Virus record (IMG/VR): IMGVR_UViG_2654587792_000016
Strand: one strand, 5' to 3'
DNA length: 13,993 nt
Source: a virus
Taxonomy: Duplodnaviria > Heunggongvirae > Uroviricota > Caudoviricetes
How positions within the stretch are numbered: the stretch's first letter is position 1; every line of letters starts with the position of its first letter. Made by a program: the position numbers and the translations under genes. The notes under the pieces were generated by a model, which did not search any database, had not been told where the DNA came from, and saw only the letters and a program-made list of their open reading frames with translations. Shown one piece after another: positions 2,960 to 5,614 of this stretch.

Positions 2960-3295
2960 ATGCCTCATAACCCAAATACCTGGCCGGACTGGCTGGAGTT
3001 GTTTCAGAGCTGGTGGCGTGGAGACACGCCGCTGGGTGCAGTGATTATGTCGATCGTTATGGCTGGTTTGCGCATCGCCTATTTTGGCGGTGGTGGTGGC
3101 TGGAAGCGAAAAACGCTCGAGATTTTGCTCTGTGGCGCTCTGACGCTGACCTTTGCATCCGCTCTTGAGTATGTCGGATGGCCTAAATCACTTTCTGTTG
3201 CCATTGGTGGCGGTGTGGGGCTGATCGGTGTCGATGCTATTCGTGGGGCTGCAATGCGAGTAATCGGTAACAAGTTTGGTGGCTCTAAGGAGTAA
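2960..3295 (+). CDS. S: Holin, lambda S-like class I (three predicted transmembrane segments)
   Basis: The track ORF 2864-3295 begins at a GTG inside the MTase 3' end; the preferred start is ATG 2960 with GAGGTGAGAG at 2942-2951. The hydrophobic segments and C-terminal VGLIGVDAIRGAAMRVIGNKFGGSKE align in pattern with lambda S ([20 protein letters not shown]). It lies immediately upstream of R. Confidence 0.8.
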   Translation: MPHNPNTWPDWLELFQSWWRGDTPLGAVIMSIVMAGLRIAYFGGGGGWKRKTLEILLCGALTLTFASALEYVGWPKSLSVAIGGGVGLIGVDAIRGAAMRVIGNKFGGSKE

Positions 3296-3298
3296 TTT

Positions 3299-3775
3299 AT
3301 GCAGGTACTAAATTCCCAGCGTAAAGCTTTCCTCGATATGTTGGCGTGGTCAGAAGGAACGGATAACGGGCGACAGCCAACCCGCAATCACGGCTACGAC
3401 GTTATTGTAGGTGGTGAGTTATTCACGGATTACTCCGATCATCCTCGCAAACTTGTCACGCTAAACCCCAAACTCAAATCAACAGCCGCCGGACGTTACC
3501 AGCTTCTTTCACGCTGGTGGGATGCTTACCGTAAACAGCTTGGCCTGAAAGATTTTTCTCCAGAAAGCCAGGACGCTGTAGCTCTGCAGCAGATTAAAGA
3601 GCGTGGCGCTTTACCGATGATTGATCGCGGTGATATTCGTCAGGCTATCGACCGTTGCAGCAATATCTGGGCTTCACTACCGGGCGCTGGTTATGGTCAG
3701 TTCGAGCATAAAGTTGACAGCCTGATTGCAAAATTCAAAGAAGCAGGCGGAACGGTCAGAGAGATTGAGGTATGA
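3299..3775 (+). CDS. R: Endolysin, lambda R-type lytic transglycosylase
   Basis: 158 aa, near-identical over most of its length to lambda R as I recall it ([82 protein letters not shown]). AAGGAG at 3287-3292 precedes the start. Stop TGA 3773-3775 overlaps the Rz ATG (ATGA). Confidence 0.95.
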
Positions 3776-4239
3776 GCAGAGTAACCGCGATTATCTCCGC
3801 TCTGGTTATTTGTATCATCGCCTGCCTGTCATGGGCTGTTAATCATTACCGTGATAACGCCATCGCCTACAAAGAACAGCGTGATAAAAAAGTCAGTGAG
3901 CTGAAGCAGGCGACCGCCACCATCGCTGACATGCAGCAGCGTCAGCGTGATGTTGCTGCGATCGATGCAAAATACACGAAGGAGTTAGCCGATGCGAAAA
4001 CTGAAAATGAAACTCTGCGCGCTGATGTTGCCGCTGGTCGTAAGCGCCTGCGGGTCAATGCCAGTTGCTCCGCAGCCGTGCGTGAAGCCACCGGACCCAC
4101 CAGCATGGATAATGCAACCAGCCCCCGACTGGCAGACACCGCTGAACGGGATTATTTCACCCTCAGAGAACGGTTGATGACGATGCAGAAGCAACTGGAA
4201 GGGGCGCAGGAATATATCCGCACCCAGCGCATTAAGTAG
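3772..4239 (+). CDS. Rz: Spanin, inner-membrane subunit (Rz)
   Basis: 155 aa. The N-terminus [32 protein letters not shown] and the C-terminal [27 protein letters not shown] closely match lambda Rz. Confidence 0.95.
3992..4177 (+). CDS. Rz1: Spanin, outer-membrane lipoprotein subunit (Rz1), embedded in Rz in the +1 frame
   Basis: 61-aa ORF wholly inside Rz. Signal peptide with lipobox (LVVSAC) and the Pro-rich [30 protein letters not shown] match lambda Rz1. GGAG at 3981-3984 is 7 nt before the ATG. Confidence 0.9.
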
Positions 4240-4623
4240 ATGGAGAAAAAACACGAATCTGTGGTTTTTACTGAGCGCGGTGTACACGGTGGAACATATG
4301 GCGGGAAGTTTGTTGCTTATGATTATGCAGCATGGCTAAACCCCGGATTTAAATATGCAGCCTATAAAGTCCTGGATGACTACTTCACCGGAGAACTTCA
4401 GCATCGCAACAGCTTAAGTGCGCAGCTCAATATGAAGTGTCATGAGTTTGATCAGAAAAAAGATATGGCGAGCTTCTGTGGACAAGGGCTGGCGGCATGG
4501 CGCTATACGAAGCCAGTGTTGGTCGCTGAGATTAACTCCCTGGCTAACCAGCTGCAGATAACGATCCCCGGGCTGTCCGGTATTTGCCGGTATGAAATTA
4601 CCGGAAGGCGCGCTCGTTACTGA
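4240..4623 (+). CDS. Hypothetical protein resembling the C-terminal half of a KilA-N domain; possibly a truncated remnant
   Basis: 127-aa ORF whose ATG directly abuts the Rz stop (TAGATG). GGTYGGKFVAYDYAAWLNPGF resembles the conserved C-terminal KilA-N motif (GTWVHPDLAIHFAQWLSPEF-like) from memory. The N-terminal half of the domain is absent and no strong SD is present. Confidence 0.4.
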   Translation: MEKKHESVVFTERGVHGGTYGGKFVAYDYAAWLNPGFKYAAYKVLDDYFTGELQHRNSLSAQLNMKCHEFDQKKDMASFCGQGLAAWRYTKPVLVAEINSLANQLQITIPGLSGICRYEITGRRARY

Positions 4624-4887
4624 GTAACAGCAGGCATTACAGCAGCCCTTCACTGAGGGGCTGCGATAATGTGAGGAATAAAAAACCGGCAGGGGAAATC
4701 CATTGAAGATTTGCCGGTGGCAAAAGATGGCCATGCTTTTAACCTTAGTAGCAGAGTTACGGAGTTCAACAACGACCGTCGCCGTTATCTTGCTGAAAGG
4801 CGTTTCAATGATTTTCATCAATTTATTCATCAGCAATGGTGATAATCACTCTCATTTTGGCGGGTCCTTCCGGTGGGGTGGCCTGCC

Positions 4888-4907
4888 ACGGGGCGGGAGC
4901 GTCGCGG
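4888..4907. other. Candidate cosN (cohesive-end nicking site)
   Basis: ACG|GGGCGGGAGCGT|CGCGG at 4888-4907 against lambda ACG|GGGCGGCGACCT|CGCGG: identical flanks and 9 of 12 positions in the presumed 12-nt cohesive end. It sits about 185 bp upstream of the terminase small subunit start, as in lambda. Confidence 0.6.
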
Positions 4908-4953
4908 AAAAAGGCTAGTTTTTGCATTTCCATGGCGGCGGCAACATGTTTAG

Positions 4954-5070
4954 TAATTTATTGATAATTAAAAGTTATTTCTCTTTTCACCTGTACAATA
5001 TTTTTTTCTCCCTGTCATTAGACCAGTTTGCAATTAATTGAAATATATAAATAAACCTGATTTTCACCTG
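4954..5070. promoter_or_regulatory. Candidate cosB: IHF consensus match plus direct repeats that could be small-terminase binding sites
   Basis: AT-rich segment between cosN and the Nu1-like gene. The minus strand of 4954-4966 reads TATCAATAAATTA, fitting the IHF core WATCAANNNNTTR. TTTTCACCTG occurs at 4984-4993 and 5061-5070, with a degenerate copy TTTTCTCCCTG at 5004-5014. Confidence 0.35.
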
Positions 5071-5086
5071 CCAGATGGAGTTGCTT

Positions 5087-5614
5087 ATGTCAAATGTGAG
5101 TGGGATCGGTGATGCTTATTACTGGAGTGTTTTTAAAATCGCCGAGGCCTTTGGGCTTCACCGGGACACAGTAAAAAAACGGCTCCTCGCGGCCAACACT
5201 CCTGTGGCTGCGACTGTCAGGGGGAACCCCGTTTACGCCCTGCAGCATGTCGGGCCAGCCCTGTTTAGTGTGAAGCATGAGGCAGCAGACTCTGTTCATG
5301 ATCCATCCCGTATGGAGCCGAAAGAGAGAAAGGACTGGTACCAGTCTGAAAATGAAAGGATCAAGCTGGAAAAGGAGCAGCGAAAACTCATCCCAGTTGA
5401 TGAAGTAGTCATCGTCTATTCGTCCATGAGAAAGGCTGTCGTCCAGGTTCTGGAGACAATTCCGGATGTTCTTGAACGCGATTGCGCCCTGACTCCTCAG
5501 GCCGTCGGCGTTGTACAGCAGGCCATTGATGACCTGCGATACACTCTTCAGGAAAAATCCTACGAGGCTTGTGCTGCTGAATTAATTCCTGATGAGGAAG
5601 GAGAGAGTCTCTAG
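5087..5614 (+). CDS. Terminase small subunit (Nu1-like DNA packaging protein)
   Basis: ORF 5075-5614; preferred start ATG 5087 with GGAG at 5077-5080. N-terminal HTH-like segment (FKIAEAFGLHRDTVKKRL), a central charged region resembling lambda Nu1, and a position between cos and the large terminase. Stop TAG 5612-5614. Confidence 0.7.
   Translation: MSNVSGIGDAYYWSVFKIAEAFGLHRDTVKKRLLAANTPVAATVRGNPVYALQHVGPALFSVKHEAADSVHDPSRMEPKERKDWYQSENERIKLEKEQRKLIPVDEVVIVYSSMRKAVVQVLETIPDVLERDCALTPQAVGVVQQAIDDLRYTLQEKSYEACAAELIPDEEGESL

Follow-up and report, generated by a model that had tools for sequence, protein, structure and literature searches.

The window analysed here is a stretch of 13,993 nt (IMG/VR record IMGVR_UViG_2654587792_000016), and its genes are the late genes of a lambdoid E. 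coli prophage. From Rz onward, phage cdtI and phage phi458 are at least 99% identical to it. The ORF under study (ORF127) lies directly behind Rz, in the following neighbourhood.

31-507: Q antiterminator
556-1200: ORF matching phrog_8498, without a Pfam domain, between Q and the holin gene
1831-2883: N6/N4 DNA methyltransferase, between Q and the holin gene
ending at 3295: lambda-S-type holin
3299-3775: R-type lysozyme
3772-4239, plus strand: Rz i-spanin gene (Pfam PF03245, E 7e-50)
3992-4177: Rz1, embedded in Rz (PF06085, E 1.4e-18)
4237-4239: Rz stop codon TAG, left boundary of the remnant
4240-4623, plus strand: remnant ORF of 127 aa with an ATG start (ORF127)
4635-4671, plus strand: two-tier hairpin, CATTA-CA-stem-loop-stem-GA-TAATG (RNA fold z = -3.8)
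4891-4902, plus strand: probable cohesive end (cosN), GGGCGGGAGCGT; the boundary of the phage cdtI record lies here (last base 4890, first base 4891)
from about 5075: DUF1441 small terminase, then gpA-type large terminase

The original prediction had placed the ORF between Rz and cos, which is reasonable, as the cdtI record starts at 4891 and the gpA-type terminase genes come next. Of the 12 bases of the putative cohesive end, 8 are the same as in lambda cosN. The small terminase gene (5075-5614) is more likely to start at ATG 5087, which has GGAG 5 nt upstream and an anti-Shine-Dalgarno pairing of -5.9 kcal/mol, than at ATG 5075, which has no Shine-Dalgarno sequence (+0.6 kcal/mol). No tRNA was found in the whole window, zero Rfam families matched positions 4100-5200, and consensus scans of positions 3700-5200 gave no terminator and two promoter-like sites, both on the minus strand and no more than expected by chance. 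An antisense ORF at 4414-4836 and small ORFs at 4703-4964 were rejected as spurious because their family matches were not convincing.

ORF127 contains a complete ORF11CD3 domain (PF10549), which had been missed in the original prediction. Residues 58-110 (4411-4569, plus strand) match profile positions 1-54 of 54 at E 1.7e-13, and with 51 bits against a cut-off of 25 this is the only Pfam domain whose threshold the ORF passes. The original prediction had described the ORF as half a KilA-N domain, matching only the C-terminal conserved block, and had proposed a profile search to locate where the alignment begins. In this search KilA-N (PF04383) aligned from residue 15 and profile position 71, covering residues 15-50 (4282-4389, plus strand) and profile positions 71-106 of 107, with E 0.012. 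The restriction to the C-terminal block was thus borne out, while "half" was too generous: the N-terminal strands and helices are missing, about the last third of the domain is left, and the score of 15.9 bits is below the gathering score of 23.8. That this weak match is no product of chance is shown by HkbK from phage HK620, whose residues 52-165 share 97% identity with residues 1-114 of the ORF. NCBIfam gave no meaningful match to the ORF.

Using tblastn, residues 1-114 were found to be 93-97% identical to KilA-N domain proteins of phages. HkbK of HK620 (NP_112071) is a full-length version of the kind that the original prediction had proposed to look for in homologous prophages: it has 165 aa, with both KilA-N (58.5 bits, profile positions 6-106) and ORF11CD3. 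In HK620, 342 nt separate the end of Rz from hkbK, hkbL comes next, and the match to ORF127 begins 153 nt (51 codons) into the gene. A consensus scan of the HK620 region between Rz and hkbK revealed an intrinsic terminator and no sigma-70 promoter. The HkbK equivalents of Ss-VASD, of the Stx phages 2851 and 1717 and of many E. coli, Salmonella and Enterobacter prophages occupy the same slot, with Rz upstream and terminase genes downstream, and carry the same ORF11CD3. BLAST alignments with the hkbK genes of HK620, pPE4, Ss-VASD and E. coli cS100a ran from 4238 to 4583 every time, and DNA identity to full-length hkbK genes was 93-98% (97.7% for Ss-VASD, 98.0% for cS100a). On these comparisons the remnant demonstrably descends from a bona fide KilA-N gene.

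Some observations concern the HkbK family at large. It is a domain mosaic: in the protein alignment some members have a near-identical ORF11CD3 half together with a divergent KilA-N half, and others have the KilA-N half in common and a different C-terminal half, the switch lying at the linker DDYFTGEL. The hkbK of PP818812 (L004), deposited as Actinobacillus phage vB_Apl-pPE4, is 93% identical at the nucleotide level to the E. coli copy and is accompanied by the same hairpin; the stated host of this record looks doubtful, or the transfer very recent. Literature searches for hkbK found no relevant paper, and those for ORF11CD3 only a domain list in a satellite paper, where it stands with KilA-N, Bro-N, Rha and ANT (PMC10111431).

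The original prediction had regarded an independent family matching all 127 aa, unrelated to KilA-N, as evidence against a KilA-N origin. A profile that matches practically the full length does exist: positions 2-126 of the 126-position PHROG 10441 match residues 3-127 at E 2.4e-76. This argument does not apply, however, since the ORF is demonstrably KilA-N-derived. The same residues match positions 64-175 of 273 in phrog_129, a "transcriptional regulator" family, as well as the C-terminal part of HkbK, and among phage records the full 127 aa occur only in cdtI, its RefSeq copy and phi458 (n = 3). PHROG 10441 probably represents this same truncated clade. An exhaustive phmmer search of 1.84 billion representatives gave 53 matches, and no divergent full-length 127-aa relative was found. 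The distant matches (28-49% identity) mostly belong to proteins of 160-230 aa with 55-70 extra N-terminal residues, and query residues 11-14 align to positions 64-79 of these relatives. Seven divergent short matches that might have represented a bona fide short family were checked and proved to be singletons or, in one case, an alternative start call for a 193-aa protein. An independent 127-aa family without relation to KilA-N therefore deserves practically no credence.

The internal parts of ORF127 and the sequences at its two joints (the slash marks the left joint, round brackets the microhomology at the right joint) are given below.

4238-4239, plus strand: left joint, AG common to the Rz stop (TAG) and hkbK codon 51 (GAG)
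4240-4242, plus strand: ATG start codon, derived by C-to-A from an ancestral CTG (HkbK Leu52)
4240-4574, plus strand: hkbK-derived body, HkbK codons 52 to about 163
4568-4574, plus strand: right joint, 7-nt microhomology CCGGGCT, common to the hkbK 3' end and a 98-aa phage gene
4575-4623, plus strand: ORF tail, residues 113-127 SGICRYEITGRRARY and stop, 3' end of the 98-aa phage gene
left joint, window: ...CGCATTAAGTAG/ATGGAGAAAAAACAC...
left joint, hkbK: ...TTAGCCGAG/CTGGAGAAAAACCAC...
left joint, phi467 after the same type of Rz end: ...TGCATTAAGTAG/CCTTTTT...
right joint, hkbK: ...GATCC(CCGGGCT)TCCGGGATGA
right joint, 98-aa gene: ...GCCAT(CCGGGCT)GTCCGGTATT...

The left joint was compared side by side in the window, HK620, pPE4, Ss-VASD and phi467. 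The Rz homology of other phages stops at 4236-4239 and hkbK homology begins at 4238, so the joint falls on the Rz stop codon, where the two parents overlap by AG (2 nt). Missing from the window are codons 1-51 of hkbK and the 342 nt between it and Rz. The proposal that a recombination joint at the boundary of the lysis cassette had clipped a KilA-N gene is supported by these alignments. What did not stand is the idea of a single joint, because at 4568-4574 a second one adds the 3' end of a gene unrelated to hkbK, which is read out of frame.

Structure models were obtained with AlphaFold for a full-length relative (pLDDT 83, pTM 0.67) and for the remnant (pTM 0.38). In the full-length model two strands (2-6, 9-13) and three helices (21-28, 36-41, 43-54) all precede the cut; past residue 54 come a poorly defined hairpin, a helix at 74-84 and two long ones (86-130, 132-156). 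Truncation at residue 52 is thus predicted to take away both N-terminal strands and three helices of KilA-N. In the model of the remnant only the ORF11CD3 helices are confident (pLDDT 86-94), and residues 1-17 and 121-127 have pLDDT below 50. A Foldseek search of the PDB with the full-length model yielded no significant hit (the APSES protein Mbp1 ranked 5th, E 0.34), so the fold gives no independent support for KilA-N.

The right joint was located by alignments with loci L023, L024 and L025 on one side and with HK620, Ss-VASD and pPE4 on the other. In the window, hkbK sequence lies to the left of the heptamer and the 98-aa gene (WP_000415821; phrog_1935, E 1e-59) to its right. Positions 4568-4671 correspond to the 3' end of this gene and its hairpin with 93% identity (L023 2485-2585). 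The reading frame of the donor was computed from the annotated CDS at 2248-2544 of L023: its codons start at 4568 and those of ORF127 at 4567, and the donor TAA falls at 4625-4627. Because of this offset the tail of ORF127 is an out-of-frame read, and on the aligned sequences its last 15 residues are junk and not hkbK. The right crossover took the last two hkbK codons and all of hkbL.

One strain carries the left joint alone. In E. coli 51008369SK1 (L028, NZ_CP029973 3118972-3119972) the joint reads TAG/CTG GAG AAA AAA CAC, and is followed by hkbK sequence up to the native ...PGLPG end and stop and by an intact hkbL; the 107-aa product is annotated as "protein KilA". The two joints are therefore separate events, and a single-step deletion that made the whole arrangement at once is ruled out by this strain. 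We infer that the left joint was formed first and the right joint second.

In phages of several types the two-tier hairpin stands directly 3' of the stop codon that ends the last accessory gene, and it was found in 29 of 32 loci (for example L001 3101-3136, L004 2888-2924 and L023 2549-2585). Its outer stem and internal loop are invariant, and its inner stem of 7-10 bp occurs as three unrelated sequences, all of which pair. Pairing holds in 100% of cells and 5 of 12 pairs show compensatory changes, while slid controls reach at most 58%. The hairpin lacks a U-run and matches no Rfam family. Right after GATAATG the sequences of Ss-VASD, cS100a and HK620 part, with one shared segment relocated. 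The accessory slot has its right edge at this hairpin. Between it and cos, at 4685-4722, lies a second hairpin, CCGGCAGGG...TGCCGG; it is kept in pSTEC711_1 and bR_120 and could belong to the cos region.

As originally described, the start of the ORF abuts the Rz stop codon without a Shine-Dalgarno sequence. TAG and ATG follow each other without a gap (TAGATG, 4237-4242), and the best anti-Shine-Dalgarno pairing in the 20 nt upstream of 4240 is -1.1 kcal/mol, a value equalled or exceeded at 79% of window positions, against -8 to -10 for R, Rz1 and terL by the same measure. Among 25 aligned copies of the truncated arrangement, 23 have C at 4240, phages cdtI and phi458 included, and A is confined to the window and strain JE86-ST05. 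When all 5426 complete E. coli genomes were searched with 41-mers spanning the joint, TAG/CTG was found in 98 and TAG/ATG in 2, both of them strains with a JE86 name. Since this is so, and since cdtI and phi458 have CTG, the abutment of stop and start is not a conserved property of the element, and the suggestion that ORF127 is a bona fide short protein coupled to Rz was not upheld. By this comparison the ATG of the window is a rare derived allele; coupling would concern this allele at most, with no sign that it is selected.

Copies of the cdtI and phi458 type are annotated from GTG 4261, because they have CTG where the window has ATG. Most CTG-type copies are annotated in this way, which gives a 120-aa product (one such variant is present on 626 contigs, and roughly 1000 contigs in the protein collection have the truncated form); this GTG lies 21 nt downstream of 4240, with GGAG about 14 nt away. 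The authors of the cdtI record themselves noted for orf60 that "Start codon is not identified". With CTG in 98 of the 100 joint-bearing genomes and no Shine-Dalgarno sequence before 4240, the translation signals are lost in the remnant.

TAG/ATG might instead be an adaptive gain of expression, with coupling to Rz selected in the window lineage. The C-to-A change does create a perfect stop-start junction, and this ATG is common to the window, the two JE86 genomes and 16 contigs with an identical 127-aa protein. However, a single point mutation in neutral sequence suffices to produce it, it has not recurred independently, it is limited to 2 of the 100 complete joint-bearing genomes, and the window copy also carries a private nonsynonymous change at 4613 within the junk tail. 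We consider an adaptive origin of the ATG very improbable.

Substitution patterns were compared between intact and truncated copies. The four full-length alleles examined, from HK620, pPE4, Ss-VASD and E. coli cS100a (L001 2499-2843, L004, L006 and L007), differ at 25 segregating sites, of which 25 are synonymous and 0 nonsynonymous, so that a single protein is encoded over the 108 codons compared. The changes counted in the double-joint clade were 6 nonsynonymous and 4 synonymous. The nonsynonymous ones are an N-to-K change on its stem, G14S, F37L, E52G, Q106R and G111V, and the residues G14 and F37 are invariant in the whole family alignment. The ratio in the truncated clade differs from that of the full-length genes (Fisher p = 1e-4), in a comparison whose numbers are small and whose sample is partly biased: the clade is young (at least 99% identical), and some loci were picked through protein variants, which favours nonsynonymous counts. 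The double-joint ratio does not differ from the neutral expectation (p = 0.23). When the left-joint-only copy was added the ratio became 6:7, below the neutral expectation (p = 0.009); the extra synonymous differences of that copy may be imported ancestral polymorphism. These few substitutions suggest that constraint is relaxed in the truncated copies, with weak residual constraint possible.

The hkbK-derived frame (codons 1-112) is open in 25 of 25 copies, as would be expected of so young a clade even without selection, and frameshifts are confined to the junk tail. Two genomes have lost 1 nt at 4576, and PGAP annotates a pseudogene "missing N-terminus" there. In two assemblies (L011 and L012) the Rz stop is changed from TAG to TTG at the equivalent of window position 4238, which fuses Rz to the remnant and may compromise the spanin by read-through; the gene caller gives a 146-aa product for this fusion (P0070). 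A further deletion joins Rz codon 50 to the middle of the ORF in P0024. Many one-off truncations and fusions of hkbK are present in E. coli assemblies, with R lysozyme, Rha and a host gene as partners, and hkbK is thus a frequent casualty of prophage decay.

The evidence bears on whether ORF127 might be a selected stand-alone ORF11CD3 protein, translated from GTG 4261 in most copies or, in the window, from the new ATG by reinitiation after Rz, and acting late in infection, for example as a dominant-negative partner that pairs with full-length HkbK-type proteins of co-resident prophages. The ORF11CD3 domain is complete and confidently helical in the model, and the frame through it is open in all 25 copies. 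The arrangement is present in the viable phages cdtI and phi458 and in about 100 complete genomes; E. coli genomes often have several hkbK-related places (up to 7), and PHROGs contains short ORF11CD3-only families (23489, 16011 and 20738). A selected protein is nevertheless hard to reconcile with copies of which 98% lack the ATG and a usable Shine-Dalgarno sequence, and whose C-terminal 15 residues read another gene out of frame. Nonsynonymous changes have struck family-invariant residues at a ratio compatible with neutrality, variants with frameshifts, fusions and further deletions occur, and the seven other short forms checked are singletons or alternative start calls. We regard a selected stand-alone protein as unlikely. 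Its more elaborate form, in which the ORF11CD3 module, rid of the DNA-binding KilA-N half, is kept through interference or co-assembly with full-length HkbK-type proteins of other prophages in the cell and the ATG is a step up in expression by reinitiation, is more doubtful still.

We infer that ORF127 lacks a selected function. With a probability of roughly 0.8, it is what is left of an hkbK-type accessory gene, a chimera that is neutral or without function and a decaying passenger in the late operon of cdtI-like prophages. This reading builds on things that the data show: the parents, both joints, the one-joint intermediate, how rare the ATG is, and the relaxation of constraint. In composition, as judged by the alignments, ORF127 is a three-part chimera of a start codon owed to a recent point mutation, hkbK codons 53 to about 163, and a frameshifted scrap of another gene.

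The remnant would have arisen by two illegitimate or short-homology recombination events from an ancestor in which hkbK, together with hkbL, stood between the lysis and terminase genes, as it does in HK620, Stx phages and many E. coli prophages. The first event would be a deletion from the Rz stop to hkbK codon 52 via the 2-nt AG overlap, which did away with codons 1-51, the start codon among them, and with the ribosome-binding site and the intergenic region (with a terminator in HK620). The second would be a crossover in CCGGGCT that exchanged the last two hkbK codons, hkbL and the sequence beyond for the 3' end of the 98-aa gene, which in the donor sits upstream of the hairpin, cos and the terminase region. 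The double-jointed form would then have spread with cdtI-like lambdoid prophages to about 100 of 5426 complete E. coli genomes, riding passively in the late transcript. In the window lineage, a C-to-A point mutation would happen to have made an ATG right behind the Rz stop, and for this reason the window copy could receive low-level translation by reinitiation. The product, if translated, would consist of a disordered KilA-N stub, an intact helical ORF11CD3 and a junk tail.

Compared with hkbK, codons 1-51 and the last two are gone from the window copy, as are hkbL and the intergenic region upstream, and an out-of-frame foreign tail has been gained. The same double-jointed remnant is present as orf60 of cdtI (BAF63393) and Orf23 of phi458, at least 99% identical in nucleotide sequence and in the same context of Rz, remnant, hairpin and cos. 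The 120-aa E. coli entries named "DNA-binding protein" or "protein KilA" (e.g. WP_000232224) are also this remnant, read from GTG 4261. All these copies have CTG where the window has ATG.

Accessory ("moron") genes, for instance bor of lambda and the rha region of P22, are found in lambdoid phages in the interval that separates lysis from packaging genes. The remnant resembles them in its slot and its dispensability, but a consensus scan found no promoter for it, and the window copy is stripped of all upstream sequence. KilA-N, Bro-N, Rha, ANT and ORF11CD3 reportedly belong to a "Bro network" of domain-shuffled phage regulators described by Iyer et al. in 2002. ORF11CD3 and KilA-N are shuffling modules there, and the halves recombine independently in the HkbK family too. 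The Bro network consists of intact domain combinations, whereas here the joint lies within KilA-N.

The object is ordinary, and its sequence is already in public records, partly marked as a pseudogene. To call it "DNA-binding protein", "protein KilA" or "hypothetical protein", as is now done, is misleading, and N-terminally truncated, C-terminally frameshifted hkbK remnant would be a better label; likewise, PHROG 10441 is best taken as a fragment of proteins of the phrog_129 type. Beyond such annotation hygiene the remnant matters little. The locus is a clean textbook case of lambdoid mosaic joints, since the parents, the 2-nt and 7-nt microhomologies and an intermediate with one joint can all be recovered. 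More interesting are two leads beside it: the covarying hairpin at the slot boundary, and the 0:25 conservation of intact HkbK, which is under extreme purifying selection with pS up to 0.34 among the four alleles.
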